Origin: Minisyncoccia bacterium
GTDB lineage: Bacteria > Patescibacteriota > Minisyncoccia > Phycocordibacterales > XYD1-FULL-46-19
Assembly (NCBI GenBank): GCA_041601795.1
Contig: JBFIHK010000002.1
Location: 1 to 47,544, forward strand
Reading direction: 5' to 3'
DNA length: 47,544 bases
The translations under genes were made by a program, and so were the position numbers. Below are positions 1,079 to 23,993 of this stretch, piece after piece; within the stretch, counting starts at the first letter, position 1, and every line of letters starts with the position of its first letter. The notes beneath the pieces were generated by a model. That model was not told the DNA's origin. It was given only the letters and a program-made list of their open reading frames with translations, and ran no database searches.

Positions 1079-1151
1079 TGCCCCGTGCAGGATTCGAACC
1101 TGCGACCGTTCGCTTAAAAGGCGACTGCTCTACCAACTGAGCTAACGGGGC
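1079..1151 (-). tRNA. tRNA-Lys (anticodon UUU)
   Basis: The reverse complement folds as a cloverleaf: acceptor GCCCCGT/ACGGGGC, D-arm TAGCTCAGTTGGTAGAGC, anticodon loop CTTTTAA, T-arm GCAGGTTCGAATCCTGC. No encoded CCA. Confidence 0.9.
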
Positions 1152-1226
1152 TTACAAAAACTGTTTACGGCATTATCTTACCTAAAAAACCTTGTTTTGT
1201 CTACGTTTTTAATTTAGTATAGCGGA

Positions 1227-1700: not shown

Positions 1701-1706
1701 ACGTTT

Positions 1707-2582: not shown

Positions 2583-2634
2583 ATATTTTATATAACAGAA
2601 AATGACTTTAAAAGCACTTTTTAGTTTTTATGTC

Positions 2635-3927: not shown

Positions 3928-3928
3928 A

Positions 3929-4957
3929 TTAAATATTTAATTTTTTTTTAATTATATAAAGATAATACCAAAAAGGTGATATAACCAAATCAAAAGTAGG
4001 GCCAAAATCTTTAATTAAGCCTGTAAACTGTTTTTTAAAATGACTCACATTTTGCCACGATAAATCTGTTCCATGGCTAACACCGCCAAAGCTATAATAT
4101 TTGGCTCCCAAGCGAGCACTTTCTAGAAAACCTATCCAATGAGCCAAATAAGTGGAAAATTGTTCTCTATAAGAACTACTAGAAGCTCCGAAAACAAATA
4201 AAGCTGTCCCACCATAAACTACTATTAAATTAATGGCTAATATTTCTTGTTTAAATTCTGATACAACTAAAAAACCATTCTTTTGATTATTGAGACTATT
4301 AAAAATATGTTGATAGTATTTTTTAGGGTGAAGTTTAAAATTTGCTCGATTAGCTGTTTCTTCCATTAAACGATAAAATTCAGGGAAATACTGACTTAAA
4401 TTATTAGAGATAATTTTAGTGGTGGTGCCTCTTTTTGTGGCCGTTCTAATAGAATAGCGAGTGTTTTTATTGAGTGAATTTAATAATTCCGTTTCAGGTT
4501 TTGATATGTCCACCACCCATTCATATCGAGGTTGGCTTAAAACAGAGTAATAACCTTTTTTAGGGGTGGGGTGAGTTTTTCTTTTAATGTTTCTTAAAGC
4601 CTCAGGAGTAAAGAATTGAGGATTAAAACGAATAAAGGCAATATTGTTTTTTTGACTATATTGTTTAAGGTAAAAAACTAAAGCTTCTACACTTTCTTGG
4701 TTTGTATTTTTTGTTAAAACAATAGGGCCATGGGGAATGAAAGCTTGTTTTTTACCTCCAGCTAGAGGGGTTGTTAAAATTTGTAAAAATATTTGAGGTT
4801 TTGTTTGTTTTTGTAAAATGAGCCTCTCTACTTTTACTCCAGGTCTTTCTTTTTGCCATAAGTTATATAAAAAACTTTGAGTTAGGTGGCCACCGATGGC
4901 GTTTATTGTTTCATCGTACATTGACGAATCTAGGGTAGTGAAAGTGAAATCTTTCAT
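3929..4957 (-). CDS. FemAB-family peptidoglycan interpeptide-bridge aminoacyltransferase
   Basis: 342 aa. Length and pattern (NKNTRYSIRTATKRG, FKLHPKKYY, YGGTALFVFGASS, YYSFGGV) are typical of FemX/FemAB proteins. Translationally coupled to murE. Confidence 0.7.
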   Translation of the reverse strand: MKDFTFTTLDSSMYDETINAIGGHLTQSFLYNLWQKERPGVKVERLILQKQTKPQIFLQILTTPLAGGKKQAFIPHGPIVLTKNTNQESVEALVFYLKQYSQKNNIAFIRFNPQFFTPEALRNIKRKTHPTPKKGYYSVLSQPRYEWVVDISKPETELLNSLNKNTRYSIRTATKRGTTTKIISNNLSQYFPEFYRLMEETANRANFKLHPKKYYQHIFNSLNNQKNGFLVVSEFKQEILAINLIVVYGGTALFVFGASSSSYREQFSTYLAHWIGFLESARLGAKYYSFGGVSHGTDLSWQNVSHFKKQFTGLIKDFGPTFDLVISPFWYYLYIIKKKLNI

Positions 4958-4959
4958 AT

Positions 4960-5532
4960 TTATTTTCGACCTAATTTTTTTATAGCTATTTTTATTTTTT
5001 CGTCGACCGTTGTGTCTTCGCCGGTAATTTGTTTGAAAATATTTCTAATATCAGAAATGTTATAACCAAGGGCGATTAAAGCATCGACAGCGTCATTATC
5101 ATTTTTAGAAATTTTACTTTGGTCATGGGGTAGAGTGCCAATTTTGTCTCTTAATTCTAAAATAATTTTTTCGGCACTTTTACGACCAATACCAGAAACT
5201 TTAGTTAAGTAACTAATGTTTTCCGATAAAATGGCTTGGCGCAGGGTCTCTGGGGGAGCGATAGACAAAATAGACAAGGCACTTTTAGGGCCAATACCAG
5301 AAATATTTACCAGAAGTTTAAAAAATATTAATTCTTCATTTTCTATGAAGCCGTACAAATCTAAAACATCTTCCCTGACTATTAGATGTGTTTTTAATTT
5401 AACTTCATCGCCGATGTTTAAACTAGATAAAGCGTGTTCTGTTAAATAAACAATATAACCAAGATCACTTGTTTTTATTAAAGCGGATCTATGTTGGAGG
5501 TCTATAATTTGTCCCTGGAGATAGCCTATCAT
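4960..5532 (-). CDS. ruvA: Holliday junction DNA helicase subunit RuvA
   Basis: MIGYLQG start and two helix-hairpin-helix motifs (ISGIGPKSA, VSGIGRKSAEKI). Confidence 0.9.
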   Translation of the reverse strand: MIGYLQGQIIDLQHRSALIKTSDLGYIVYLTEHALSSLNIGDEVKLKTHLIVREDVLDLYGFIENEELIFFKLLVNISGIGPKSALSILSIAPPETLRQAILSENISYLTKVSGIGRKSAEKIILELRDKIGTLPHDQSKISKNDNDAVDALIALGYNISDIRNIFKQITGEDTTVDEKIKIAIKKLGRK

Positions 5533-5601
5533 TAATATATATAATACATTTTGCTTTCGCCCCTTGCAATTTAAAGAAATATTATGTAATATTCTCCTCG
5601 T

Positions 5602-5874
5602 ATGCCAATAACTAAATCAGCTAAAAAAGCTTTGCGAGGAAGCGCTAAAAAACGCGTTTTTAATAATACTCGTAAGAAAAACATGAAAGACGCCGTTAAG
5701 AGGATAAAAAAGTCTTTAATGGTTAAAGATGTAGCCACAGCTGAAAGTAAGCTCAGTGAAGCTTATAAAGCCATAGACAAGGCTTTTAAGCGGGGGGTAA
5801 TCAAGAAAAATACAGCTGCTCGAAAAAAATCTCGCTTAACTAAAGCTATTATTAAAACTAAAAAAGCTAAGTAA
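5602..5874 (+). CDS. rpsT: 30S ribosomal protein S20
   Basis: Basic 90-aa protein. MPITKSAKKALR...start is typical of S20. Confidence 0.9.
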   Translation: MPITKSAKKALRGSAKKRVFNNTRKKNMKDAVKRIKKSLMVKDVATAESKLSEAYKAIDKAFKRGVIKKNTAARKKSRLTKAIIKTKKAK

Positions 5875-5891
5875 AAATAAAATTAAGCCTC

Positions 5892-5923
5892 AAAAAAAAC
5901 ACTTCAAGAGAAGTGTTTTTTTT
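5892..5923. terminator. Bidirectional intrinsic terminator (rpsT / tRNA-Arg)
   Basis: A-run, stem cacttc / gaagtg with loop aaga, then T8. Confidence 0.7.
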
Positions 5924-5968
5924 GATCTTATAAATTGAAATTGCTAATTTATTTTTTATCAAAAATTT

Positions 5969-6043
5969 TGGTGCTCTCACCAAGAGTCGAACTTGGATTA
6001 CGGGTTCCGCAAACCCGCGTTCTATCCATTGAACTATGAGAGC
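5969..6043 (-). tRNA. tRNA-Arg (anticodon GCG), CCA encoded
   Basis: Reverse complement GCTCTCA-TA-GTTCAATGGATAGAAC-G-CGGGT-TTGCGGA-ACCCG-TAAT-CCAAG-TTCGACT-CTTGG-TGAGAGC-A-CCA. Confidence 0.85.
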
Positions 6044-6076
6044 TTAAATTTCTTAGGCTAGATTATCATAAAAAAA

Positions 6077-6571
6077 TTAAAAGCCCAACTGCTCTGATAT
6101 TTTATCTACTAGTGATTCTTCAAAGTCTACCTCTGGTATAAAGTCAGCTAAAAAGTCGCGTACCTCTTCAGGGTCAATATGGCTTAGGGGTATGACAATA
6201 TGAGGGAAGATCATACGTCCAGTTTCTACCATTAATTTATAAGGTTTTTCATCGTCTTTAATGGCAAAAGAGTCTATTTCTTTTAAAGGGTATAAATTAT
6301 TTTTTATTTTTATACCTTGAGTGGAGATTGAAAAATTTATTAATTCTGGTTTCCTGTTAACTAAAGCCATGGCTGTACCCATGCCGATTAATAAAATGAG
6401 AGCCAGTAAAAAGTTTTTTAAAATAATAGCCAGTAAAATTCCTCCGGCGGTAACAGCTCCTACAACCCAAAACCAGTCTTGAGTTTTGTCTTCTTGTTGG
6501 GTGTATTCAAAATCTTGCCAGTCTATAGTTTGGCCTCGTCTATTTTTCCTAGGATTTAGAGTAGGGTTCAT
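6077..6571 (-). CDS. Hypothetical membrane protein
   Basis: 164-aa ORF with two adjacent hydrophobic helices (WFWVVGAVTAGGILLAIILKNFLLALILLIGMGTAMAL). No recognisable family. Confidence 0.6.
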   Translation of the reverse strand: MNPTLNPRKNRRGQTIDWQDFEYTQQEDKTQDWFWVVGAVTAGGILLAIILKNFLLALILLIGMGTAMALVNRKPELINFSISTQGIKIKNNLYPLKEIDSFAIKDDEKPYKLMVETGRMIFPHIVIPLSHIDPEEVRDFLADFIPEVDFEESLVDKISEQLGF

Positions 6572-6688
6572 TGTTCATATTGTAACAACGCTCATAGATT
6601 ACTTCAATTTTTTTACACACAAATTAAATAAAATTTATTTTGCCTTTAACATCATTTGTATTAACAGTATAATACTGAAGATACTTTT

Positions 6689-8146
6689 ATGTTTAATTTT
6701 GAAAAATGGCTTTTTAGTTTTGTTGTTTTCAGTAGTTTAAGTGCTATCTTGTCGATAGTAGTTTTTTCTCCTGTTTTAAATAAGGATAAGTGGCTGACAT
6801 TAGCAGAAGAAGCTTTAGTGGTGTTTGATTTAAAATCTAAAGCTGTTTTGTCGCAAGTAGAAGATATTAAAGTTTTTGAACCTGTAGATTGGGTCGAAGA
6901 AGGGGCAGTTCAAGTGATAGACGAAGGCAATCCTATGAATTTTAAAGTTTGGCGACCGCAGGTAGAAGTTAAAGATAATTTAATTAAAAATAAAATTGAT
7001 TTTTTAGAAATAAATTTTCCGACCGGTAAAATAATTAAACACAAATCGGGTCAGTCTGAACTAAAAAAAGATATTTTGGCGGCGGGTGATCCTCAAGGTT
7101 GGGGTGGAACACCAGCTGGACTTTATAATGTTTTGAGTAAAAATGAAAAATCTTTTTCCATGTCTAGTAGTGCTTATATGCCTTATGCTGTGCATTTTTA
7201 TGGTAAGTATTTTATTCATGGTGAGCCATATCTTACCACTGGAGATAAAATAGACTCTGTTTATTCTGGGGGCTGCATCAGAGTAGCTGACAAAGATGTT
7301 CAAAATATTTTTACCGCTAGTGATGTAGGGCTACCTGTTTTAGTTATTGATAAAAATTACATTGATCGCTCATTTATAGTCAAAGATTTACCTAAACCAT
7401 TAGTATCGGCTAAATCTTTTGCGGTGGTTGACTTAGAGTCGGGGGTGGTTTTAGCTGACAAAGAAGCCCAAACCAAAAGACCAATTGCTTCTATTACTAA
7501 ATTAATGACAGCGGTAGTGGTAGCTGAAAATATAGATTTACGTAAAGGGGTTTATGCTACCGATAATATGTTGGAAGCTTATGGGTCGACCGAAGGTTTA
7601 ACTAGTGGGGGTTTTTATAAGGCGGTGGAACTTTTTCATTTATTGTTAACAGAAAGTTCCAATGACGCAGCCGAGGTTTTAACTGGTTTTTTAGGACGTG
7701 AGGCTACTATTAATTTAATGACCGAAAAAGCTAAAAGTTTATTTATGGCAGACACTAGCTTTGCCGATCCGTCTGGGTTTGATAGGGACAATATTTCGAC
7801 CGCTAAAGATTTAACTTTTTTAGCTCGTTATATTTACAACAATCGAAAGCCTATTTTAGACATTACAGCTGGGAGAAAAGTCACCACTTTTGGACCCATG
7901 CAATTTGAGGTTAGCAATTTAGTTAATAAAAATAGTTTTAAAAATGGTATTGGTTTTATTGGTGGCAAAACTGGCTTTATTAACGATGCTCGTAACACCG
8001 GACTTTTTATTTTTAAGATGAAAAATAGTTTAGGCGAAGAGTTTCCAGTAGGGGTGACCGTTTTAGGGTCTGAAAGTTTAAAGCAAGATACTGAAAAATT
8101 GCTCGAGTGGGTAGAAGAGGAGTATGAGCTTGAAAGGGTGGGGTAG
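6689..8146 (+). CDS. Fusion protein: L,D-transpeptidase (YkuD) domain + D-alanyl-D-alanine carboxypeptidase (S11/PBP5-like) domain
   Basis: N-terminal anchor. YkuD motif HGEPY...SGGCIRV. Then SxxK (ASITKLM), SxN (ESSNDAA) and KTG (GGKTGF) motifs of class-A low-MW PBPs. Confidence 0.8.
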   Translation: MFNFEKWLFSFVVFSSLSAILSIVVFSPVLNKDKWLTLAEEALVVFDLKSKAVLSQVEDIKVFEPVDWVEEGAVQVIDEGNPMNFKVWRPQVEVKDNLIKNKIDFLEINFPTGKIIKHKSGQSELKKDILAAGDPQGWGGTPAGLYNVLSKNEKSFSMSSSAYMPYAVHFYGKYFIHGEPYLTTGDKIDSVYSGGCIRVADKDVQNIFTASDVGLPVLVIDKNYIDRSFIVKDLPKPLVSAKSFAVVDLESGVVLADKEAQTKRPIASITKLMTAVVVAENIDLRKGVYATDNMLEAYGSTEGLTSGGFYKAVELFHLLLTESSNDAAEVLTGFLGREATINLMTEKAKSLFMADTSFADPSGFDRDNISTAKDLTFLARYIYNNRKPILDITAGRKVTTFGPMQFEVSNLVNKNSFKNGIGFIGGKTGFINDARNTGLFIFKMKNSLGEEFPVGVTVLGSESLKQDTEKLLEWVEEEYELERVG

Positions 8147-8189
8147 GGTTGGTTTACTTGAAAAAAATTTGAGATTTAGGTAATGTTTT

Positions 8190-8405
8190 ACTTGGGTAAG
8201 TAACAACAGTTGTCATGGTGACATCTCTGTTGGTTGCTGGGTAGGCAACCAAATGAGTAGTCGGGTTCGATGCCCGAAACTGGACCGATAAGAGAGAAAT
8301 GGTTGTCTAGAATAAGTGGGAGCCGTTGAGACTTTTTCGCTAGAAAAAGAGGAGGCGTCGTTGGAATACCACTCTCCATTAATCAAATTGAGGTTTGTTA
8401 CCCTT
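8190..8405 (+). ncRNA. Unassigned structured RNA candidate (or long structured 3' UTR of the preceding gene)
   Basis: No credible ORF. Several hairpins: GTCAtggTGAC; GGTTGC-tgggtag-GCAACC; perfect T-arm-like TCGGG-TTCGATG-CCCGA at 8261-8277; CTTTTTC-gcta-GAAAAAG. Immediately followed by an intrinsic terminator. Confidence 0.35.
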
Positions 8406-8407
8406 CT

Positions 8408-8443
8408 GAGCTTGTCACTTTGTGTGGCAAGCTCTTATTTTTT
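8408..8443 (+). terminator. Intrinsic terminator
   Basis: Stem gagcttg...caagctc (8408-8434) followed by ttatttttt. Confidence 0.7.
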
Positions 8444-8451
8444 ATAGGTTT

Positions 8452-8621
8452 AGGGAGGGATTCGGTCACAAATAATTCTCTTGCCGTCGCTCGAGAATTT
8501 CCGCGACCCCGGCTCGGCTATTCACACTGCTGTGTTAATTATGCCTGCGCCTTTCGAATCCCTCACGCGACTGAAGCAGTTCAGTCGCTCCTCTCCTTGT
8601 CAAAATTTTCAATTTTGCCTG
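8452..8621 (-). repeat. tRNA-Ser-linked trailing element
   Basis: Sense remnant 8452-8464 equals tRNA gene 8627-8639 (13 nt). Antisense box 8553-8564 ttcgaatccctc. 9-bp hairpin with CTGC loop at 8567-8588. Confidence 0.7.
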
Positions 8622-8708
8622 CGGAGAGGGAGGGATTCGAACCCTCGGTGCCCTTGCGGACACTCCGGTTTTCAAGACCGGTGCGATCAACCACTCTGCC
8701 ACCTCTCC
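8622..8708 (-). tRNA. tRNA-Ser (anticodon UGA), class II
   Basis: Reverse complement GGAGAGG-TG-GCAGAGTGGTTGATCGC-A-CCGGT-CTTGAAA-ACCGG-(long variable arm)-GAGGGTTCGAATCCCTC-CCTCTCC-G. Confidence 0.9.
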
Positions 8709-8740
8709 AAAAGTAAGCCCTAGGGCTTACTGGTTGTTAT

Positions 8741-9187
8741 TTATTTGTTGTTGTCACCACTATGATCTGTTGTCATAGGGGTGTAGTCTTCAGCTGTTGT
8801 CGGCATTGGATTTGGGTTTGTTGTCGGTACAGTGCTAGCTTCAGATTCTGAAGACATAGTTTCTGGAACGTTTTCTTTGGTGCTGTTTTCTGTTTTTGGA
8901 GCTTTTGATTTAAGACTCTGGGTTTGGGGTGGGGTTTTAGGTTTAGTATCTGCAATAAAAGATCCAGTTGGACGATTTAAGCTTTTGGAAATAAAAAGGA
9001 TATAGATAATTTCTAAAATACCTAAAGTGTTAATCAAGATTAAGGCAATAAACCATAATTTATGATTGTTGCGAGCTGCTTGCCAGAGGGCAATAGCTTT
9101 CCAAACTATAGACCAGACGATAATAAAGATCAGTATCGACCAAAAAATAAAAACGACACTATCAGAAAAATTCAATGTTTGTTCCAT
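8741..9187 (-). CDS. Small membrane protein with Pro/Thr/Ser-rich C-terminal tail
   Basis: Two TM helices (IFWSILIFIIVWSIVW; LWFIALILINTLGILEIIYILF) followed by a low-complexity tail. Confidence 0.6.
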   Translation of the reverse strand: MEQTLNFSDSVVFIFWSILIFIIVWSIVWKAIALWQAARNNHKLWFIALILINTLGILEIIYILFISKSLNRPTGSFIADTKPKTPPQTQSLKSKAPKTENSTKENVPETMSSESEASTVPTTNPNPMPTTAEDYTPMTTDHSGDNNK

Positions 9188-9260
9188 AATTGTTATAGTA
9201 CAATAATATTATTAAAAATCAACCACGACTTAAAAGGTCTATATAGTATATAATAAGAAA

Positions 9261-9656
9261 ATGAAAATTGCAGGCAAAGTTTTGGGTATAGATTTTGGAA
9301 CTAAAAAAATAGGCCTAGCTTTGTCGAATGAGCTTAGAAGTGTGGCTTTTCCTTATGATGTAATACCAGTAAGCAAAGAACTTGTGGAAAAGGTGGTCGA
9401 CATCTGTCGCCGAGAAGAAGTTGAACTAATAGTGGTGGGTGAGTCTAAAAATAATAATGGACTATATAATGAAGTCCATGAACTAGCGGTTAAGTTTATA
9501 GTTGAGTTAAAAAAAGTTTTAGATATTGAAGTTGTTTTTCAGCCAGAAATGTTTTCGACTCAAGAGGCTACAAGAACCGCTCCAAAAGACAAAGACACTG
9601 ATGCTAGAGCGGCAGCTATTATTTTACAAAGTTATTTAGAGAATTATAATTTATAG
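9261..9656 (+). CDS. ruvX: Holliday junction resolvase-like / pre-16S rRNA nuclease YqgF (RuvX)
   Basis: VLGIDFGTKKIGLALSN N-terminal RNase H-fold motif. 131 aa. Confidence 0.85.
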   Translation: MKIAGKVLGIDFGTKKIGLALSNELRSVAFPYDVIPVSKELVEKVVDICRREEVELIVVGESKNNNGLYNEVHELAVKFIVELKKVLDIEVVFQPEMFSTQEATRTAPKDKDTDARAAAIILQSYLENYNL

Positions 9657-9658
9657 TC

Positions 9659-10258
9659 ATGAACTGGCCAAAAAAATTATCTCGTGACTACCTGCACTTA
9701 TGGTTGAAAAATCAAGCTACTAGAAAAGAAGCTTCTTGGGTTTTAGGGGTAATTTCGTTTACTGAAAGCTCTTTTTTTTTAATTCCACCCGACTTTTTCT
9801 TAATTAGTATTTTGTTGGCCGATAATAAACGTTGGTGGCATTATACTTTAATCACCATTGTTGGCTCCGTACTCGGAGGTATTTTTGGCTATTTAATTGG
9901 ATTGCTTTTTTTTGATACAGTGGGAGTTTGGGTTATTGAGACTTATAATCTGACCACTGAAGTTCAATTGGTAGGACAAAAATTTAATGACAATGCTATG
10001 TGGGCTATTTTTGTGTCTGCTTTTACGCCTATTCCATATAAGGTGTTCACCATTTCAGCTGGGTTTTTTAAAGTAAATTTATTTATTTTTGTTTTAATGT
10101 CTTCTTTAGGGCGAGGTTTAAGATTTTTAATCATTGGTTATATTATGCGTTTATATGGTCCGATGGCAGGGAAGTTGATGTATAAATATTTTAATGGCAT
10201 ATCTTTGTTTTTAGCTTTAGTTATTTTAACCTTAGTTTTTTATTCATATATTTTTTAA
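9659..10258 (+). CDS. YqaA/DedA-type (VTT/SNARE-associated domain) membrane protein
   Basis: TESSFFLIPPDFFLISI motif and four or more TM segments. Confidence 0.65.
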   Translation: MNWPKKLSRDYLHLWLKNQATRKEASWVLGVISFTESSFFLIPPDFFLISILLADNKRWWHYTLITIVGSVLGGIFGYLIGLLFFDTVGVWVIETYNLTTEVQLVGQKFNDNAMWAIFVSAFTPIPYKVFTISAGFFKVNLFIFVLMSSLGRGLRFLIIGYIMRLYGPMAGKLMYKYFNGISLFLALVILTLVFYSYIF

Positions 10259-10309
10259 CTTGCTCTAGAGAAAAAATAATAGTAATCTAAAAATTGTAAA
10301 TTAAAGTTT

Positions 10310-10381
10310 GCCCCGGTAGTTCAATGGATAGAACTGCGGACTTCTAAGCCGTTAATGGGGGTTCGATTCCCTCCCGGGGCA
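10310..10381 (+). tRNA. tRNA-Arg (anticodon UCU)
   Basis: GCCCCGG-TA-GTTCAATGGATAGAAC-T-GCGGA-CTTCTAA-GCCGT-TAAT-GGGGG-TTCGATT-CCCTC-CCGGGGC-A. One A.G mismatch closes the anticodon stem. Confidence 0.85.
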
Positions 10382-10543
10382 CAAAGAAAAAAGACGCTAT
10401 CAAGCGTTTTTTTTATTTGTGTTTCGGAGAAACTAAACTGCTTTAGTTTCGTGAGGTAATCGAAAAGGTTCTTCCTTACCGTCTCGCCGAATAGAGCGAG
10501 ACGGTGGAAAACCTGTACTGTTCCTGTAAGGAAAGATTCCCTC
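10382..10543 (+). repeat. tRNA-Arg(UCU)-linked trailing element
   Basis: 9-bp hairpin with CTGC loop at 10429-10450. Antisense box gaggtaatcgaa at 10453-10464 (11/12 to the complement of the tRNA T-arm). Nested hairpin at 10479-10504. Sense remnant gattccctc at 10535-10543. Confidence 0.7.
10386..10414 (+). terminator. Intrinsic terminator directly after tRNA-Arg(UCU)
   Basis: aaaaaagacgct-atca-agcgtttttttt. Confidence 0.55.
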
Positions 10544-10678
10544 TTGGTATTCTAAAACAAAACGTAAGTTTTGGCTGATTATATTTTAGTAGCCCCGGGA
10601 AGGAATCGAATTAGTAAGAAAATTTTATTTAAAACGTTATACAGTATAGTAAATAATTATTACTTAACTATCTTGTAC

Positions 10679-11245
10679 ATGTTAACCAAAATCATTGTTA
10701 TTTTAATTGTTGGTGTAATTGGTGTAGGAGGTTATTTGGTCATTTCTAGTGAGGGTGAAGTTTATGATACCGATTTATCAAACAGTACATCAACTGCAAC
10801 TACAACAACATCTAATATTAGTGAATCAAAAGAAGACAACTTTATTGAGGAAGATTTGTCTATCAAGTGGAAACAAATAGATGCTCCTAATTTTACTTTA
10901 TTTATTCCGACTGATTGGAAATTTAATCAGCTACAAGGTATAGATTCATATTTAGGGGAGTTGGTGGGGCCTGAAGCTAAATTAACTTTTGACTTTGGTT
11001 TATATTCTGATTCACTGGTGGCAGACGACGATCCTAATTATGTGATTACATATGAAAATATAGATGGTTACAAAGCTAAAATAATTAAACCTAAAACAAT
11101 TGGTCTGGGTACAGTTGGTGTTTATTTCGATAATGTTGGTGGAGGTGGCTTTCAAACTACTAAATTACAGATATCTGGCCAAGATTTATCTAAGAAAAAT
11201 CAAGAAATAGCTCTACAAATATTTAGATCTATAGAGTTTAAATAA
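10679..11245 (+). CDS. Hypothetical N-terminally anchored secreted protein
   Basis: The track ORF 10571-11245 starts at TTG inside the tRNA-linked region. The first ATG (10679) gives MLTKIIVILIVGVIGVGGYLV signal anchor, then a Thr/Ser linker. Confidence 0.6.
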   Translation: MLTKIIVILIVGVIGVGGYLVISSEGEVYDTDLSNSTSTATTTTSNISESKEDNFIEEDLSIKWKQIDAPNFTLFIPTDWKFNQLQGIDSYLGELVGPEAKLTFDFGLYSDSLVADDDPNYVITYENIDGYKAKIIKPKTIGLGTVGVYFDNVGGGGFQTTKLQISGQDLSKKNQEIALQIFRSIEFK

Positions 11246-11369
11246 TTAATTGTAAAGAAAGCTTCAGCTTAATATTTTTTAACAGATATTTAATAACAAA
11301 ATCTTTTCTAGTCCCTTAGTGTGTTGCTACAAAATCAACAGCCCCGAAGCTTTTACTGAAACATAAAAA

Positions 11370-11645
11370 CTGAGGGACTCTCGAGCTACACTCACTGGTA
11401 CTTTTCGATTAAATATTCTTAATCAGATATTTAATAACGAAAAGTCTTTCGAGATACCCGTACTTTTTTTGGGACTCGGTCACAACTCTTCTGTTTCGAT
11501 AAATCTACACAACGAAGGTCGCGACCCCGTCTCAGCGACAAGTACTCACTTGGTTCGTCTTGTATACCGCTTCCGACCTTCGAGTCCCTCAGCGCCTACA
11601 AAACAAAAATATTCTAAAGCAATACTTTAGAATCTAATGTTTTTG
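11370..11645 (-). repeat. tRNA-Val-linked trailing elements, stacked modules (proximal 11471-11645, distal 11370-11470; older decayed copy likely 11246-11369)
   Basis: 17-nt antisense box at 11579-11595 is the exact reverse complement of tRNA gene 11649-11665. Sense remnants gggactcg at 11471-11478 and ctgagggactc at 11370-11380. Confidence 0.75.
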
Positions 11646-11719
11646 TGCGCGCTGAGGGACTCGAACCCCCGGCCTACCCGGTGTAAACGGGTTGCTCTAG
11701 CCAACTGAGCTAAGCGCGC
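11646..11719 (-). tRNA. tRNA-Val (anticodon UAC)
   Basis: Reverse complement GCGCGCT-TA-GCTCAGTTGGCTAGAGC-A-ACCCG-TTTACAC-CGGGT-AGGCC-GGGGG-TTCGAGT-CCCTC-AGCGCGC-A. Confidence 0.9.
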
Positions 11720-11758
11720 AATATTGCTACAATACCTTATTTGTATTACTTTATCAAG

Positions 11759-12490
11759 ATGGGTTTTGAACCAAAAATTATATTTGAAGATGAAAATGTT
11801 CTAGTTTTAGACAAGCCAGCGGGCTTGTCTGTTCATGGTGACGGTTTTAAAAAAGAAATTACTTTAGCTGACTGGTTGGTAGGCAGGTGGCCTAGTATTG
11901 TAAATGTAGGGGAATCAACTATTAAAAACGGTCAAGAGATTTTGCGGCCAGGAATAGTTCATCGTTTAGATAGAGATACTAGCGGAGTGATGGTGGTGGC
12001 TAAAAATGAAACAACTTTTAAATATTTAAAAGAGCAATTTAAAAATAGACAAGTTCAAAAAACTTATAGAGCTTTGGTTAAAGGAGTTTTTTCGAAGCCA
12101 GAAGTAGAAAAAATAGTTTATCTACCTATTGGCCGAAGCGATAAAGATCCTAGGAAAAGGGTCGCCAGTCTTAAAGCTGCTGGTAAGTTAAGGTCAGCCG
12201 AAACTAGGTTTAAAGTTTTGGCAACTTCAGGTGAAGGGTATTCTTATATTGAAGCTTATCCGAAGACGGGCCGGACTCATCAAATTAGGGTTCACTTAAA
12301 AGCCATTCAACACCCTATAGTAGGAGATAAGTTGTATGCCGGGGAGTTATTTAATTTATCAGATTTAAATAGACAAGCTCTCCATGCTTATAAATTAACC
12401 CTTTCTTTACCTGGAGGTATAAAAAAAGAGTTCACAGCTCCCATTCCAGCTGATATGGCTTTAGCCCTTGATAAGCTTAAATTATCGTGA
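11759..12490 (+). CDS. rluD: RluA/RluD-family 23S rRNA pseudouridine synthase
   Basis: HRLDRDTSGVMVVAK catalytic motif. Start moved to ATG 11759 (the track start 11741 is TTG, adjacent to tRNA-Val). Confidence 0.85.
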   Translation: MGFEPKIIFEDENVLVLDKPAGLSVHGDGFKKEITLADWLVGRWPSIVNVGESTIKNGQEILRPGIVHRLDRDTSGVMVVAKNETTFKYLKEQFKNRQVQKTYRALVKGVFSKPEVEKIVYLPIGRSDKDPRKRVASLKAAGKLRSAETRFKVLATSGEGYSYIEAYPKTGRTHQIRVHLKAIQHPIVGDKLYAGELFNLSDLNRQALHAYKLTLSLPGGIKKEFTAPIPADMALALDKLKLS

Positions 12491-12506
12491 TAAACTACCT
12501 CTCGTT

Positions 12507-13004
12507 ATGAATACTATGACACTTGCCATCTCACCGGTGGATATCGCTAAAAGAAAAAAAATAGATTTGACCCCAGGTAATACTGTTCGGGTGTTTTTAA
12601 AGATTGAAGAAAAAGGTAAAACTCGATTGCAGATGTTTGAAGGTTTAATCATTTCTCGTAAACACGGCACTGAAGCTGGCGCCACTTTTACTGTCCGTAA
12701 AGTAGCCTCAGGGGTAGGGTTAGAAAAAACTTTTCCTTTATATTCTCCAGTAATTGATAAAATAGAAGTAGTTAAAAAATCTAAAGTTCGTCGATCTAAA
12801 CTTTATTATATTCGTGATAAAGCTGCTAAAGAAATTCGTCGTCGTATGAAGCAAATCATTGGAGGAAAACAAGATGACAACTTAAATGACGAGGAAGAAA
12901 CAGAAGAGGTGGTGGAAGTTTTAGACAGTCCAGATGTTAACCCCGAAGAGGTGGTTGCAACTGAAGCAGAAACACCAGAAACAAAACCAGAAGAAAACAA
13001 ATAA
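12507..13004 (+). CDS. rplS: 50S ribosomal protein L19 with acidic C-terminal extension
   Basis: GNTVRVFLKIEEKGKTRLQMFEGLIISRKHGTEAGATFTVRK...FPLYSPVIDKIEVV is canonical L19. The ATG 12507 start is preferred over the overlapping track start 12468. Confidence 0.9.
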   Translation: MNTMTLAISPVDIAKRKKIDLTPGNTVRVFLKIEEKGKTRLQMFEGLIISRKHGTEAGATFTVRKVASGVGLEKTFPLYSPVIDKIEVVKKSKVRRSKLYYIRDKAAKEIRRRMKQIIGGKQDDNLNDEEETEEVVEVLDSPDVNPEEVVATEAETPETKPEENK

Positions 13005-13014
13005 ATTTAAAAAA

Positions 13015-13042
13015 ACAAACCCTGAATCAGGGTTTGTTTTTT
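13015..13042 (+). terminator. Intrinsic terminator after rplS
   Basis: acaaaccctg-aat-cagggtttgt followed by ttttt. Confidence 0.8.
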
Positions 13043-13077
13043 AAATGACTTTTCTTTACAATTTTAAATATAAAATT

Positions 13078-13161
13078 GCGCGAGTGCTGAAACTGGTAGA
13101 CAGGCACGCTTGAGGGGCGTGTGCTCGTAAGAGCGTGGAGGTTCAAGTCCTCTCTCGCGCA
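13078..13161 (+). tRNA. tRNA-Leu (anticodon GAG), class II
   Basis: GCGCGAG-TG-CTGAAACTGGTAGACAG-G-CACGC-TTGAGGG-GCGTG-(variable arm GCTCgtaaGAGC)-GGAGG-TTCAAGT-CCTCT-CTCGCGC-A. Confidence 0.9.
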
Positions 13162-13304
13162 CAATTGAACAAAGTTTAAAATTGTACGCGAGAGGCGCAT
13201 CTGTTTTTTATAAAATAAAAAACAGGAGCAGGACTTGAAAAGACCCCGCCCTTCTAGAAGGGCGGGGTTGATGTGAGTTGACCCCAAGCCCCCTCGTTAC
13301 GCAC
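13162..13304 (+). repeat. tRNA-Leu-linked trailing element
   Basis: Antisense pieces cgcgagag(g) at 13187-13195 and aggacttgaa at 13230-13239, separated by an AT hairpin. GC hairpin at 13244-13267. TTGACCCC end. Decayed sense remnant aagccccctcgttacgcac at 13286-13304. Confidence 0.65.
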
Positions 13305-13379
13305 CCTTTACTTTTATTTTTAATATGATATAATAAAAATAGTTAGATTCATAAAATACTACCAGAGGAGAATACAGTC

Positions 13380-13586
13380 ATGGCTCGACAGTTTTTCCAA
13401 GTATTTTTTTATGATGAATTAGGACGTTGTTTGTGCCAATGTCCTAAAGTGTGGGGTCTTAATTTAGACCATGCCATTAGGCGTGTTCGAGACAAAAGAC
13501 CAGACCTTGAGGAAACTTATGTTTACGGCAAGAGATTACCCAAAAAATCTCGCACCCAAATGATGGGTGGCAGAGAGATTCATTGA
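13380..13586 (+). CDS. Small hypothetical protein (68 aa, Cys-containing)
   Basis: Strong RBS ggaggag 7 nt upstream of the ATG. A strong terminator follows. No recognisable family. Confidence 0.55.
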   Translation: MARQFFQVFFYDELGRCLCQCPKVWGLNLDHAIRRVRDKRPDLEETYVYGKRLPKKSRTQMMGGREIH

Positions 13587-13600
13587 TAAGTGGATCTCGC

Positions 13601-13634
13601 ACGGGCCCGACTTTTAGTCGGTGCCCGTTTTTTC
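13601..13634 (+). terminator. Intrinsic terminator
   Basis: acgggcccgac-tttta-gtcgg(t)gcccgt followed by tttttt. Confidence 0.8.
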
Positions 13635-13665
13635 TTTTTGTTAAAGATTTTGCTAAAATACTCTG

Positions 13666-14223
13666 ATGGCATTATTTACAGGTAAAGGCGACGGGGGTAC
13701 AACTAAAACTTTCGGCTGTAATCAAAGAGTATCTAAAAGCTCTAACGTGGCTGAAGCACTAGGCACTTTAGATGAGGTGAATTCTTTTTTAGGTGTTTGT
13801 AAGGAAAAAGCTCGAGCGAGTTTTTCTGTACCACCTTACGATATGCCTTTGTCACAATTATTACATCAAACTCAAGGCAATTTGTTTATTGTACAAGCTG
13901 AACTAGCTGGAGCTGAAAAAACAATCACTAAAGTCAAAGTGGTTGAAACTGAAAATATAATCAATGAAGTTGAAAAAATGATGCCACCCATTACTACTTT
14001 TTTTATTTCTGGTGGCACAGAATTAGCGGCTCATTTAGATTTTGCTCGAACGCTGGCCAGAAGAGCTGAGCGTCAGGTGGTGGGAGTTAAAGATGAGGGA
14101 GTACAAAAAATTGGGGCTGACACCCTGGCTTATTTAAACCGTCTATCTAGTTTATTGTACGCCCTGGCTAGACTTACTAACCATTTATCTGGTATAAAGG
14201 AGGAGTCGCCTAGATATAAGTAG
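13666..14223 (+). CDS. PduO-type ATP:cob(I)alamin adenosyltransferase family protein
   Basis: N-terminal TGKGDGGTT motif plus helical-bundle-length protein (185 aa). Confidence 0.8.
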   Translation: MALFTGKGDGGTTKTFGCNQRVSKSSNVAEALGTLDEVNSFLGVCKEKARASFSVPPYDMPLSQLLHQTQGNLFIVQAELAGAEKTITKVKVVETENIINEVEKMMPPITTFFISGGTELAAHLDFARTLARRAERQVVGVKDEGVQKIGADTLAYLNRLSSLLYALARLTNHLSGIKEESPRYK

Positions 14224-14235
14224 GCGATAATAGAT

Positions 14236-14308
14236 GGTGCCTATGGTGTAACGGTTAACACTGAGGTTTGTGGAACCTTCGATTCGGGTTCGATTCCCGA
14301 TAGGCACC
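14236..14308 (+). tRNA. tRNA-His (anticodon GUG) with encoded G-1
   Basis: G(-1)-GTGCCTA...GAGGT-TTGTGGA-ACCTT...CGGGTTCGATTCCCG-TAGGCAC-C. G-1 pairs with C73. Confidence 0.9.
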
Positions 14309-14519
14309 CAAAAATAATAAGTTTAAACTGAAAGTTTGAACGATTGTATTTTTGGTGTTGATCTATCCGGAATCGAAAGACGGAGGCGGTACACAAGACG
14401 AGGAGAAAAACGACGAGTGCTTGTCGCCGAGTCCGGGGAGGAAGCACTTAGTGAACGAAGACCGGAGGGATGAGTGAACTTAGTGACTTGACCCCGATTC
14501 CCGATAGGCACCCAAAAAT
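14309..14519 (+). repeat. tRNA-His-linked trailing element bounded by a perfect 24-nt direct repeat of the tRNA 3' end
   Basis: gattcccgataggcacccaaaaat at 14292-14315 and again at 14496-14519. Antisense box ccggaatcgaa at 14367-14377 (10/11). Confidence 0.8.
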
Positions 14520-14727
14520 TAAAGATAGGCATTTTTACTTATCCACAAGTTGTTGGTTTTAAAAAATATGATATTTGTTAGGCTAATAAGTGAGGTAGGA
14601 TAGTTTGAAAGATTATGCTGTAAGGTTATAATCACTCGTTTTTTAAACGAATCGATAGAACTATTTTACCTCATTAAAGAAACCGGCTTTGAAGCGGGTT
14701 TTTTTAATGTTTGGTATAATAAATATT

Positions 14728-16258: not shown

Positions 16259-19200
16259 TTATTTGTTTTGAGCTTGTTTAATAATGTTTAAGGCTTTACT
16301 CAGAGCACCTTCAAAAGTGTTTTCATTGAGTGAGTAGCTAAAGAAGCGAGCACTGTCTGTTTTCCAGCCGTCTTGGCTTAAGAGTCTACCAACAGAAACT
16401 TTTTTGGTGGCAAAGTCTATCATGAGTGAACCTTGGAAACCACCTATTTTATGTAAGGACAGTTTAGTGCCGTCTATTTTAACTTTAATATTATCGGGGA
16501 CAATATCTTTTCCTAAAAGGGCTTGCCACAGAGCTGGCCGGTCTGGGTTAACTAAAGCTTGAGCCAGTTTTAGTTCGCCGTCCGGAGTCCAATTTAAACT
16601 TCGAGTAATATCTAGAGCGGATAAAATAGCTTGAGGGTTATTGCTGTTTTCAACTAAATTGTTGAAAATCACTAATTGATTGGTATCTAAATTGCCTTTA
16701 GCGTCTGTTAAAAGAATAGACCTTTCTCCATTTAACAAATTAACTAAAACATCAAATTTGCTACCTGGTTTTATGTCACCATTTTCAGCTAAACCGGTAA
16801 TATTAAAATCTTTTTCATAATGAGAAATAGAGTTCGCCAGACCTTGGGGGAAGTTGTATTTTTCATGCAGAATAGAAGCGGTGTGGTTTAAGTTGGTATC
16901 TACTTCGGTCTTAATAGATTCTAGAGGTGTTTTTGCTTCCATTTGTTTTTCTAAGACAGAAATGTCTTTGGGGGTTCTTTCAGTGGGGGCTTCTGGAGAG
17001 ATTTGTGTTTCTTGATGATGAAAATTAGGCTCAATTACAGATTCTTTGCTTTCATATTTATCGGCTAGCATTTGTTGCCAAGTTCCTTCGCCGGTGGCTT
17101 GAGCGTATTTTATAATAGGTGAGTCTTGATCTATTTTTTCAGTAGCCCTGTCTAAGAGGGGTTTAAAAACATCGCGGTTAAATTTGTCATAATCGGAAAT
17201 AATTAATTGGCCGTCAGAAAATTTTACATATTCTCCAACTGTATTGGGATTAAGACCAGCAATAGCATGTTTATTGATTATAACTTCTCTAATATTAGCT
17301 AAAACATTTTCTAAGCGTGCGGCTTCCACTTTATCAAAAAATTCTGGTGTTTTATCGTCGTAAGCTTGCATGACTACTCGACGCAAGGTTTGGTCTAGAG
17401 TTTTAAAATCACCATTTTGACCGACTTCATAAACAACAGAAACCTTACCATAAGGATCGGTGATAACATTAGCCCCTGTGTTTTCAAATAGAGCCAAGCG
17501 CGAATAAGGTTTCCTGTTGATGTCTTCTAAGTTTATATCCGGGCGGTAGGGAATAGGGGGAATATCATCATTACTTTCTTGGTCGGTGATACTTTTAAAG
17601 ATATCACCAAGAGGGTTCGATTCTGCATCTTTTTCAGCTGAGTAACGTATAGGGCCTTCAGGTAGGATGTCAGGTTCTAAATCGTCGGGAGTGTTTTTAT
17701 CTTGTGTTAAAATACTTTCAAAATACTCGCTTTTGTCTAGAGCTAGGTTGTAAACATGGGTGGCAGCTTTGTATAAAGTGTCGGCCATCATGGCAAGCAC
17801 CACCCCTTTAGAAGCTGTTTCCACATTTTTGGCAGTCATCGCTAGAACATCAATAGTGCCGTAGCCACTGATCATACGTTCCATTTCTGTAAGCTTATTT
17901 TCATAAGAGGCAAATAACTTTTGCTTTTTAAGTTCTTTTTTAGAGCTTGCCAGTTTATCGTCGTTTTCAATTTTATTTAACTTTTTTTCTACTCGGCTTA
18001 ACCAAAATTTATTTTGCCATTGGGCTACTCCTTGAGACATACCAGCAAGCATTAAGCGAGCTTCGTCTAATTTGTTGATATTTTTTTTCTTACCCTTAGA
18101 AATACTACGAGCAACCCTTTGTAATCGTTGCCGGCTTTCTTTTAATTCATCATAGCTCCTCATTTTACGAGTTAGTGAACCGTAAAGAGTATTGTCTAAG
18201 TTGTTTGCTGTTTCTCTGGCTGTTTCTTGAATTGATATTTCTTCTTCAATTTCCTCGATAGTTTTTCCTTCTTTTTGACCTTTTTTTATAATAGCTTCTT
18301 TTTCATGCCATTTTAAGCTTGTATTTCTTTCTGCTTTTTTCCGAAGAACATCATCACCAGAAAGGCGAGCTTCTTTGGTTCCTCTGGATATTTCTTCTAC
18401 TCCACTGGCGATTAACATAACAGAGCGCAAAGGGGCTCCAGCTCCAACGTCGCTTAAGATGCGACTAATTTTAAGAGCGGTACCAATTGGCCGGCCAATG
18501 TTGCCAGCTGAAGTTAAAAAACCACCTTGTTTGTTTTGGGTATTGTTTATAATGTTTTCTACTTGTTCTGCTTTACCACGACGACCAGAGGCTAATCCAT
18601 GTAGAAATCTAGTTAAAGTATCTTGGTCGCGTAAATCTTGATTATTTTCATTAGGATTTTTAAATTTTGTGGCTGACTTTTCTAATATGTTAGCAATTTT
18701 TTCATTTTTCCATTTATCAATTCGATAACCTAAAGTATTTAAGCCGTATTTAACTTTTTCTTTTTTATCGTCGGGTAGAGATTCTATTTCTGCCATCACT
18801 TCTTCAGCTCTAGAGGCCACTTTTTCTATATTTTCTATTAAACCGTCAGAAGCTAAATTCTCTTTTATTTCTTTAATAGTTTCTGGAGGTAGAAGTTCTT
18901 TTTTACTGCCCTCGACTTCTATGTGGTCAGATAAATCTAAATTTTCTTTAAATGCAGGGTCAATATTTTTATCTAAATCAGCCTCGTTGAAAGGCGTTTC
19001 TGTATTTTCTTTGGCCGTTTTGTTCCTGGTCTCTAGGGTTTCTTTTATATCAGCAACAGCTTTTTTATAAGTAGGGGGGTAATCCGGATTGGGGTTGTTT
19101 TCTCTGTCGTAAGCCGCTTGCAAGATTTCTTTATTTGGAAGGTCTTTTGGTTGATTTCTATCTGTAGTATCAAATTTAGGCACTAAAGTATTGTCTTTTA

Positions 19201-22890: not shown

Positions 22891-23436
22891 ATGGCTAAAC
22901 AAGAATTAGATCAAGGTCGTAATTGGTATGCTATTCATACTTATGCTGGTTATGAAAATGCGGTTACTCGTAACTTGAAACAACGTATAGAGTCTTTAGG
23001 AATGGAAGATAAAATTTTTAATGTTTTAGTCCCAACAGAAAAAAAGGTTAAAATTAAAGCTGGGAAAAGAGTAGAGGAAGAAGAAAAGATCTATCCTGGT
23101 TATGTTTTGGTAGACATGATAGTAAATGATGATTCTTGGTATGTGGTTAGAAACACTCCGCGGGTGACTGGTTTTATTGGCTCTGGAGTAGTACCAGTAC
23201 CACTAGAAAAAGGAGAAGTAGATGAACTATTTCGTCGCATGAACTCAGATAATACTACTCATACTATAGATTTAACCCTAGATGAGGCTGTAACTATTGT
23301 TGATGGTCCGTTTAAAGATTTTGAAGGTAAAGTCAGTGAGGTGGATAATGCTAGAGGTAAAGTAAAAGTTTTAGTCACCATGTTTGGACGAGAAACACCA
23401 GTAGAGTTAGATTTTTTGCAGGTCAAAAAGATTTAA
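22891..23436 (+). CDS. nusG: Transcription termination/antitermination factor NusG
   Basis: WYAIHTYAGYENAV NGN start and a C-terminal KOW region. Confidence 0.92.
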   Translation: MAKQELDQGRNWYAIHTYAGYENAVTRNLKQRIESLGMEDKIFNVLVPTEKKVKIKAGKRVEEEEKIYPGYVLVDMIVNDDSWYVVRNTPRVTGFIGSGVVPVPLEKGEVDELFRRMNSDNTTHTIDLTLDEAVTIVDGPFKDFEGKVSEVDNARGKVKVLVTMFGRETPVELDFLQVKKI

Positions 23437-23482: not shown

Positions 23483-23905
23483 ATGGCTAAAAAAATAATA
23501 AAAAAATTAAAGTTACAAATTCAAGGTGGAGCCGCTAATCCAGCCCCTCCTGTAGGACCAGCTTTAGGACAAGCGGGTATTAATATTGGTGAATTTGTTA
23601 ATCAATTTAACTCGGCCACAGCTGAAATGAGGGGGGATGTGATCCCGGTAGAGATTTCAGTTTTTGAGGATAGAAGTTTTAGTTTTGTTTTAAAAACTCC
23701 TCCTGCTTCTCGCCTCATATTAAAAGCTGCTGGTATAGCTAAGGGTTCTGGTAAGAATTTAGTTAAGAAGGCTGGCAAAATTTCTATGGATCAAGTGAGA
23801 GAAATTGCTGAAAAGAAATTGGTTGATTTAAATGCTAGAGACATAGACGCAGCCGCTAAAACTATTGCTGGCACTGCTCGCTCTATGGGGGTGGAAGTGA
23901 AATAA
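23483..23905 (+). CDS. rplK: 50S ribosomal protein L11
   Basis: [16 protein letters not shown] motif. Confidence 0.95.
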
Positions 23906-23993
23906 GATACTTCCACTAGCCGGAACGCGACGGCGTGAGGCGGGCCTGCGCAATTTTTCAGCAGAAAAATATGTGTGAGTGGAAGTGAAATAA
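23906..23993 (+). repeat. Short element after rplK with sense-antisense-sense copies of the rplK 3' end
   Basis: gtggaagtgaaataa at 23891-23905 is repeated at 23979-23993. The antisense acttccac is at 23909-23916. Confidence 0.65.

Follow-up and report, generated by a model that had tools for sequence, protein, structure and literature searches.

A duplicated tRNA-His 3′ end and a probable family of structured elements with gene-matched arms in Patescibacteria

In the genome of a Minisyncoccia bacterium, the tRNA-His gene is followed at a distance of 180 nt by a second, perfect copy of its own 3′ end, and the question is what kind of event has placed it there. The window, i.e., the whole stretch of DNA analyzed here, is 47,544 nt of contig JBFIHK010000002.1. 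In the original prediction, the two copies were regarded as attL and attR of a site-specific recombinase crossing over in the T-loop, and the insert between them as probably the youngest of several such events at tRNA genes of the window.

The tRNA-His locus

The repeated sequence, GATTCCCGATAGGCACCCAAAAAT, is found in exactly two copies when the window is searched, at 14292-14315 and 14496-14519 on the + strand, and there is no further match at up to three mismatches (expected by chance: 0 in 100 shuffles). From G57 in the T-loop, the repeat extends through the 3′ strand of the T-stem, the 3′ strand of the acceptor stem and the discriminator to C74 and six bases of the trailer. An exact duplication of 24 nt reaching 7 nt past the discriminator is therefore confirmed as predicted, and it is a direct repeat of the tRNA 3′ end flanking an insert, as in tRNA-integrating genomic islands. 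The locus is divided into the following parts.

14237-14309, + strand: tRNA-His(GTG), found by ARAGORN and with 61.2 bits by the Rfam tRNA model; from G57 on it coincides with x copy 1
14292-14315, + strand: x copy 1, GATTCCCGATAGGCACCCAAAAAT, T-loop G57 to C74 plus 6 nt of the trailer; exact repeat
14316-14353, + strand: spacer S, comprising a hairpin high in AT (AGTTTAAAC/GTTTGAAC) and a run of T complementary to the trailer, assigned by sequence and fold
14354-14377, + strand: x′, GGTGTTGATCTATCCGGAATCGAA, repeating the tRNA-His 3′ end imperfectly and in inverted orientation; 5′ strand of the closing helix P1
14378-14495, + strand: core, a GC-rich three-way junction, divergent member of class A
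A14378, + strand: joiner J of the core, preceding P2
14379-14433, + strand: P2 of the core, with a GAC/GTC base, a GGAG/CGA internal loop and a hairpin
14434-14495, + strand: P3 of the core, after P2
14496-14519, + strand: x copy 2, identical to copy 1; 3′ strand of P1

The antisense box CCGGAATCGAA that had been pointed out inside the insert lies at 14367-14377 as claimed, and turns out to be part of the longer x′. Together, the tail of tRNA-His, S and x′ form a single long imperfect palindrome. In the predicted fold of the + strand, x′ pairs with the downstream x to give P1, which closes the three-way junction and, in this model, doubles as a mimic of the acceptor/T-arm helix of tRNA-His. 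The minimum free energy of the unit is -61 kcal/mol (z -4.7) on the + strand and -52 kcal/mol (z -3.7) on the opposite strand. The insert is GC-rich, as had been noticed (43-46% in 200-nt windows over the insert vs. roughly 30% just downstream), and open reading frames across its 180 nt are found on the opposite strand only, where they extend into the flanks. A tmRNA or a split or permuted tRNA was considered as well; ARAGORN found none of these, and the tRNA-His gene is intact. As for the empty-site allele, tRNA-His is expected to continue there directly with TAAAGATAGG.

Misassembly or chimera formation could in principle create such a repeat, and repeats are a general risk in metagenome assemblies; nothing else speaks for this explanation here, and its probability is negligible. 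A separately assembled contig, from the Logan assembly of run SRR29257383, shows no difference here, the same 24-nt duplication occurs in L203 and L204, two ENA assemblies of a related organism from other samples, and the architecture is reproduced at hundreds of loci. Exact-protein look-ups for strain variants of the genome of the window returned the same sample only. The repeat is thus real, neither a chance match nor an assembly artefact, and the corresponding doubt raised in the original prediction is removed.

A common plan behind tRNA and other conserved genes

The original prediction proposed that the insert be sought at other loci, and the same plan, i.e., gene end x, spacer hairpin, x′, core and x, was found behind five more tRNA genes of the window and behind rplK. 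With tRNA-His, six of the seven tRNA genes are followed by it. The units behind tRNA-Lys, tRNA-Ser, tRNA-Arg(TCT), tRNA-Val, and tRNA-Leu consist of a hairpin, an antisense acceptor/T arm, a core, and a sense T-loop/T-stem, and those behind tRNA-Lys and tRNA-Val are tandem pairs. tRNA-Arg(GCG) is the sole tRNA of the window lacking a unit and the sole one with an encoded CCA.

852-1047, − strand: two units behind tRNA-Lys(TTT)
8452-8596, − strand: unit behind tRNA-Ser(TGA), with x′, a CUGC-loop hairpin, an antisense T arm, a class-A core and x (GAATCCCTCCCT); 83 bits, E 4e-19, with covariance model R1 at 8459-8560
10419-10543, + strand: unit behind tRNA-Arg(TCT), with a class-C core carrying a UGUAA-loop hairpin; a second, core-less x′ follows at 10589-10610
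11370-11599, − strand: two tandem units behind tRNA-Val(TAC), with inverted repeat I1; R1 47.9 bits
11471-11599, − strand: tRNA-Val unit 1, class-A core
11370-11470, − strand: tRNA-Val unit 2, core different from that of unit 1
13184-13296, + strand: degenerate unit behind tRNA-Leu(GAG), with P2 missing relative to L203
23906-23993, + strand: unit behind rplK with no gap after the stop codon, made up of GATA, x′ (CTTCCAC), a class-A core and x; R1 44.5 bits, E 2e-9, model match at 23910-23985

In the rplK unit, x (GTGGAAGTGAAATAA, 23979-23993) repeats the 15-nt end of the coding sequence at 23891-23905. Cores share sequence blocks across different tRNAs of the window, and arms match the tRNA of each unit. 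The core of the tRNA-His unit shares blocks with that of tRNA-Val unit 1, and its P2 is homologous to those of cores behind tRNA-Gly, tRNA-Ser, and tRNA-Val elsewhere; as a divergent member of class A, it is scored weakly by R1.

Class A, the commonest class, is made of P1 (x′/x), a 3-nt joiner, P2, GGG, and P3. The base of P2 is G-N-C/G-N′-C, its internal loop GGAG/CGA, and its bulge the two bases AU; the hairpin is variable. P3 is built on GUCGMG...YGUGAC; one of its pairs is an invariant G-U, two pairs covary, and an A is bulged. Further classes (C, D, and more) sit in the same position as class A. In the alignment, 91.8% of the cells are paired vs. 68.3% after shuffling (a value reached in 0 of 500 shuffles) and 33-47% with slid partners, and double-change cells number 273 vs. 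84. The search pattern and the parser fixed some of the invariant columns in advance, as they did the complementarity of the middle pair of P2. Compensatory changes thus exceed both the shuffled and the slid controls, with some columns fixed by the pattern, and the core fold is shown to be maintained by covariation. There is no excess of G-U in the variable helices (19 G-U vs. 17 A-C pairs).

No Rfam 15 family was found on the units of the window, of the locus, or of 43 related loci, either at the gathering score or at E values up to 1-10; families that gave no unit match include group I and group II introns, hammerhead, twister-sister, hatchet, pistol, tmRNA, drum, and ROOL. The only Rfam matches in the scanned DNA are tRNA, rRNA, RNase P, and one unrelated group I intron. 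Searching the literature for a described element of this kind found none. Among individual candidates, the hammerhead was set aside by reasoning on the order of its junction strands and its conserved bases, which do not fit. For a remnant of a group II intron, covariation with the tRNA end accounts for the 5′ GUGCG (GTC pairing with GAC, and ATG with CAT), and domain V is missing. The published features of TIGR-Tas arrays and of the drum and ROOL motifs are not those of the units.

The fixed orientation of the units, the conserved G-U, a G-C/G-U position in P3, and the lower folding energy on the tRNA strand are indirect signs that the unit may act at the RNA level, and on the strand of tRNA polarity.

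Occurrence in other genomes was surveyed as well. The nearest named relatives of the neighboring protein belong to Candidatus Vogelbacteria. Eighty rplS-anchored loci from GTDB species place the organism of the window in Patescibacteria (Paceibacteria). These loci, taken as unbiased, include many genomes with the architecture behind tRNA-His, tRNA-Leu, tRNA-Val, and tRNA-Arg, and many genomes lacking it. In several species, the sense copy reaches the full acceptor end and matches the tRNA-His variant of that very species. Scanning metagenomes for the core motif gave 128 matches, of which 60 are preceded by a tRNA on the same strand at a distance below 400 nt, with about 20 tRNA types represented; the others are mostly in high-GC contigs and chance-like. 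With a covariance model built from 40 cores, 33 of the 36 hits in the unbiased loci follow a tRNA of their own strand at a distance of 5-256 nt, vs. about 12% expected by chance, and no hit is in the opposite orientation.

The arms follow the gene. At least 11 of 12 bases agree between x and the unit's own tRNA in 25 of 57 units (0.4% for non-cognate tRNAs), and the same holds for x′ in 26 of 57 (2.6% for non-cognate tRNAs). Nor is a tRNA necessary: a unit downstream of rplL is bracketed by two copies of a 19-nt hairpin, another follows a tmRNA-like end, and units are present inside partial 5S duplicates flanking a 5S rRNA gene on both sides. The direct repeat varies in length (7, 15, 19 or 24 nt, or a whole hairpin). 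An origin of x′ as a copy of the 5′ strands of the tRNA is ruled out, since a G-U in the tRNA corresponds to A-U in x′, and also since complementarity extends into the trailer. It is shown that the arms carry no fixed sequence of the element but one that is taken from, or fits, the adjacent gene. The best reading is a large, undescribed family in bacteria of the candidate phyla radiation, residing behind tRNA and other conserved genes.

What, then, remains of an att site? Elements mobilized by tyrosine integrases at tRNA genes have a direct repeat that begins in the T-loop, leave the tRNA intact, and accumulate in tandem behind tRNA and tmRNA genes. The units resemble them in all three points: the repeat of tRNA-His begins in the T-loop and passes the tRNA end as in classical tRNA att sites, the gene is intact, and tandem accretion is reminiscent of island arrays. 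According to an explanation on this line, an island or prophage entered tRNA-His by T-loop crossover and was later deleted to 180 nt. The part of the original prediction that describes a direct, target-derived repeat from the T-loop around an insertion stands, while its agent and its tRNA specificity do not. A crossover restricted to tRNA T-loops is contradicted by rplK, rplL, 5S rRNA, and the tmRNA-like end, which carry the same architecture with repeats of those genes; rplK, rplL, and 5S rRNA likewise speak against targeting of tRNA and tmRNA genes alone through a fixed attP. The lengths of the arms, from 7 to more than 24 nt, also differ from those elements. A simple attL/attR pair does not predict the third, inverted copy x′ found in every unit. 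The insert is not what is left of a decayed island but a complete member of a conserved, covarying, structured family of 90-200 nt that is constrained and has an RNA-like core. No integrase or other island gene accompanies it, either here or at the equivalent loci of relatives, dozens of which were inspected; in the window, 30 of the 43 open reading frames of at least 130 aa were scanned with Pfam, and they belong to housekeeping families or to no family, with no integrase, transposase, recombinase, or reverse transcriptase among them. The integrase explanation is thus largely refuted and very improbable.

Insertion, exchange and constraint among relatives

Relatives of the locus were fetched through homologs of the neighboring protein (L203 at 94% identity, L207 and L208 at 83%, and L209 to L211 at 78%). 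At tRNA-Ser, L203 has an extra unit of about 190 nt between the tRNA and its trailer, with a 19-nt repeat (C56 to C74) at its borders, whereas the tRNA-Ser of the window abuts the trailer directly; the extra unit is thus in one of the two genomes only. Conversely, the class-A core behind tRNA-Ser of the window is deleted in L203. The site behind rplK is filled in the window and L203 and empty in L207 and L208, and this comparison assigns x′ to the insert. The existence of filled and empty sites shows that the unit is an insertion. The original prediction had proposed looking for a relative with a tRNA-His locus lacking the insert, and the tRNA-Ser and rplK sites provide equivalent filled/empty pairs.

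Exchange is seen at tRNA-Arg(TCT), where spacer, x′, hairpin, and x are kept and the core class differs between the window and L203; cores are probably exchangeable between arms like cassettes. At the orthologous tRNA-His site, L203 has the same unit, L207 a truncated one of another class, and L209 a class-C unit. It had been held that a conserved duplication in all relatives would speak for a fixed functional structure rather than an insertion; such a duplication is shared with L203, but not with more distant relatives, which have other units or none. Elsewhere, a 134-nt sequence is repeated more than three times in a perfect tandem array in L198, L066 also has a tandem array, and L194 and L170 have orphan copies with sharp borders.

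The shared units are strongly conserved. Between the window and L203, 68 of 235 four-fold degenerate sites differ (28.9%). In the tRNA-His unit, only 5 of 125 positions of the core differ (4.0%), where 36 are expected at the neutral rate (P about 8e-13), with 0 of 24 in x (P about 3e-4), 0 of 33 in S, and 6 of 28 in x′, where L203 has GGTGTTAGCCTATCGGGAATCGAA, a better complement than the x′ of the window. The rplK unit is 5.7% divergent vs. 29% in the adjacent non-element spacer, and the tRNA-Val unit is 6.5% divergent between the same two genomes. The shared units thus evolve 5-7 times slower than neutral sites, and accordingly they are either under selection or recently exchanged; the low divergence could reflect recent recombination between the lineages. 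Being common to the window and L203, the tRNA-His unit is older than their split. It is hence not the youngest copy, as had been supposed: across 29% four-fold divergence, none of the 24 positions of the repeat has changed.

Such constraint also fits a host function without mobility, and this leads to a rival explanation in which the unit is a cis-acting RNA owned by the host, a functional 3′ module of transcripts of tRNA, rRNA, and ribosomal proteins. Possible roles are those of a signal for processing or punctuation, of a structure protecting the 3′ end, of a partner in termination or antitermination, or of an acceptor/T-arm mimic titrating tRNA enzymes, and the unit would diversify by local duplication and recombination instead of transposition. 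Many observations agree with this. The units are strictly co-oriented with the upstream gene and immediately next to it, and in L152 they are located between tRNAs of one operon, just 3 nt past the CCA. Arms are kept while cores swap, purifying constraint is strong in comparison with four-fold sites and neighboring spacers, P1 of the tRNA-His unit reproduces the acceptor and T stems, and the x-S-x′ hairpin competes with P1 in a riboswitch-like logic. However, the distribution is patchy even among genomes whose neighboring proteins are 94% identical, and many tRNAs and many species have no unit. Clean insertions, one of them at a protein-gene end where tRNA mimicry is impossible, orphan copies, perfect tandem arrays, and several unrelated core classes in one and the same place are also hard to reconcile with a host-owned module. 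We regard this explanation as rather unlikely.

Probably, then, the unit is a non-autonomous, insertion-polymorphic, structured element of about 90-200 nt, non-coding and with arms derived from the host gene, that is carried by Patescibacteria. If this is true, hundreds of copies of the element reside in Patescibacteria, a group whose genomes are among the smallest and least understood of all bacteria, and many duplications of tRNA 3′ ends otherwise annotated as att sites or pseudogene fragments would be explained. The core would be a new conserved RNA fold with no Rfam match, and a candidate for catalysis or protein binding. Target-matched arms, instead of fixed terminal repeats, would set the insertion site, which would be relevant to programmable DNA insertion. 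The units would also serve as fast-evolving markers for strain tracking in uncultured lineages.

Possible modes of spread and known systems

A unit of this kind consists, in order, of spacer hairpin S, x′ as the inverted end of the host gene, the conserved GC-rich three-way-junction core, and x as the direct copy. Its place is directly behind the 3′ end of a conserved gene with high expression, in most cases a tRNA gene, on the same strand. The unit would be co-transcribed with the tRNA, and it may act or propagate as a folded single strand of tRNA polarity. Co-transcription is suggested by the fixed orientation, by units placed 3 nt after the CCA and by units between tRNAs of one operon. Spread would depend on an enzyme acting in trans, with the target sequence duplicated or required on both sides. 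The preference for the ends of tRNA, tmRNA, rRNA, and ribosomal protein genes fits homing to conserved sequences as well as hitch-hiking on strong transcription. Neither an autonomous relative nor a mobilizing enzyme was found.

One possible route is a retro-element. Here, reverse transcription of an RNA whose 3′ end is tRNA-like, with insertion through target-primed synthesis, would give target-site duplications of variable length and make x′ similar to a primer-binding site for the tRNA 3′ end. Direct repeats do vary from about 7 to 24 or more nt, the last 18-23 nt of the tRNA find their complement in x′, with CCA included wherever the gene encodes it, the orphan copy of L194 ends exactly at CCA, and units reside in highly expressed transcripts. 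If x were a copy of mature tRNA, CCA should be in excess; it is gained in 5 x copies and lost in 5, which is no excess. Moreover, the 6-nt trailer of the gene itself is present in 22 of 74 x copies. A mature tRNA as the source is thus rejected, and x is copied from DNA or from a precursor. There is also no reverse transcriptase among the scanned open reading frames of the window, and no poly-A tract or other hallmark of retro-elements. Retrotransposition is therefore a quite improbable route.

Other candidates are integration of a folded hairpin, as in CTX phage or integron attC, and insertion through long, variable staggered cuts. In the former, a small circle carrying a folded x-S-x′ hairpin would undergo single-strand exchange with the chromosomal site, and replication would then yield x, S, x′, core, and x, exactly as observed. 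This would explain the three copies and the arrays, but not how arms come to match new targets such as rplK, and it would leave unexplained an enzyme able to act on such diverse arms; the diversity of the arm sequences itself argues against a sequence-specific enzyme. The latter would explain the variable repeats but not x′. In attP of CTX phage, used by XerCD, and in integron attC, inverted target-like copies fold into a duplex mimic of the target. The units behind tRNA-His, tRNA-Ser of L203, and rplK are similar in having an inverted copy of the site inside, near one end, and direct repeats at both ends. Unlike these systems, arms differ with each host gene, which Xer or IntI cannot explain, and the core shows a conservation and covariation that integron cassettes lack in their content.

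More speculatively, the unit may be a programmable mobile RNA or DNA element of a class not recognized before, in which a conserved three-way-junction core lies between arms matching both strands of the target; this is a tentative reading, possible rather than favored. The core would be ribozyme-like or protein-binding, and the element would seek out the most conserved genes (tRNA, tmRNA, rRNA, and ribosomal proteins) at their 3′ ends, might receive new arms for other targets, and would be inserted by a guide-based process with no recombinase gene nearby. Or the units may be genomic copies of viroid-like circles of about 130-200 nt, in which a single x is paired with x′ as a rod. Conceptually, the two arms matching both DNA target strands recall the tigRNA of TIGR-Tas and the bridge RNA of IS110 (PMC12045711). 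TIGR systems are present in bacteria of the candidate phyla radiation, and tigRNAs are 36 nt long, have 9-nt spacers showing no mutual covariation, and are found in arrays with Tas genes (PMC12045711). By contrast, the arms of a unit are complementary to each other and 7-24 nt long, and no Tas or IS110 gene is present.

Returning to the reading as a non-autonomous element with host-derived arms, the units have much in common with MITEs, Correia, RPE, and REP/BIME sequences, being small, non-coding, multi-copy, and insertion-polymorphic with stable stem-loops. Bacterial miniature repeats are often co-transcribed with neighboring genes. The units are unlike MITEs in that the arms differ from locus to locus and are copied from the host gene instead of being terminal inverted repeats conserved in the family, and in that the duplication is long and variable instead of a target-site duplication of fixed length. 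Unlike miniature repeats in general, it is the internal structure that is conserved, not the termini.

Group IIC introns and other elements inserting behind terminator hairpins are similar in another way: the unit is placed just 3′ of a gene-end hairpin, is partly complementary to the upstream flank, and has a bulged A 8 nt before a 3′ end ...GUGAC. It differs from them in being far too small, in lacking domain V and any Rfam group II match, and in having a direct copy of the flank downstream. Finally, like the tRNA-like domain of tmRNA, YrlA, and viral TLS, long-form P1 reproduces the acceptor and T stems of one tRNA. Unlike in these RNAs, the T-loop is replaced by the core and CCA is not enriched; short-form units and those behind rplK and rplL show no mimicry, and the specificity of the units is for the neighboring gene, not for an amino acid.

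The stretch behind the tRNA-His unit

The unit inserted behind tRNA-HisGUG is followed by a stretch at 14520–14688, before the SDR gene, that differs from the close relative L203 at only 8 of 169 positions, compared with 29% at four-fold sites. This stretch contains an inverted repeat, GTGAGGTAGGATAG...CTATTTTACCTCA, which encloses a CUGUAAGG hairpin resembling the class-C cores of the units, and the repeat is followed by a clean terminator, AAACCGGCTTTGAAGCGGGTTTTTTT. A search against Rfam returned weak matches, all of them sub-threshold. The stretch may be a further unit or a small RNA gene.

Host tRNA ends, core-less hairpins and other settings of the cores

All six unit-carrying tRNA genes of the window (tRNA genes 1078–14309) end in N73-C-A-A, not in CCA; the sole CCA-encoding tRNA gene there, tRNA-ArgGCG (5969–6043), lacks a unit and is followed by a plain terminator. 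In two related loci, L053 and L057, the terminator hairpin downstream of tRNA-His takes the last tRNA bases into its outer stem, giving the gene end, the spacer hairpin and the inverted copy (x, S, x′) without a core. Such hairpins may represent either native targets or footprints left by excision.

Behind tRNA-ArgUCU in another compared locus (L198, 9575–9894, reverse strand), a 134-nt unit consisting of the spacer hairpin and a class-A core is present in more than three perfect tandem copies, whose arms are cut down to the final 3 nt of the tRNA plus the trailer. Class-A cores are also enclosed by partial 5S rRNA duplicates in three loci (L157, 10018–10337; L144, 1102–1163; L116, 263–324), one core preceding the 5S gene in the sense orientation and another following it in antisense. 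Contigs of 52–68% GC (L088, L091, L136, L140 and L187) host a variant that is GC-rich and bears a 5′ hairpin, GTGAGGCCCGGC...GCCGGGCCGCAAG.

Protein genes of the window and L203

Three coding features of the window are as follows.
10571–11245, forward strand: ORF of 224 aa with a TTG start, overlapping the core-less second x′ (10589–10610) behind tRNA-ArgUCU
25725–26684, reverse strand: single ORF fusing dihydrofolate reductase and a HIT domain
31093–34542, forward strand: class I tRNA synthetase ORF (Pfam tRNA-synt_1, Anticodon_1, DUF5915) with a histidine-phosphatase domain (His_Phos_1) inserted at residues 504–669

The 224-aa ORF has no Pfam family, and its L203 version is called at 191 aa; its true start probably lies further downstream. 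L203 harbors a small GIY-YIG ORF (18895–19146) between nusG and rplK; the window lacks this ORF, and its nusG (22891–23436) adjoins rplK (23483–23905).

A group I intron match and a possible 23S rRNA insertion in relatives

A group I intron match of 58.6 bits is found in L132 (4331–4534, forward strand). Rfam detects the 23S rRNA gene of L116 (926–3964, reverse strand) in two pieces with about 2.6 kb between them, pointing to a large insertion, as is typical of these lineages.
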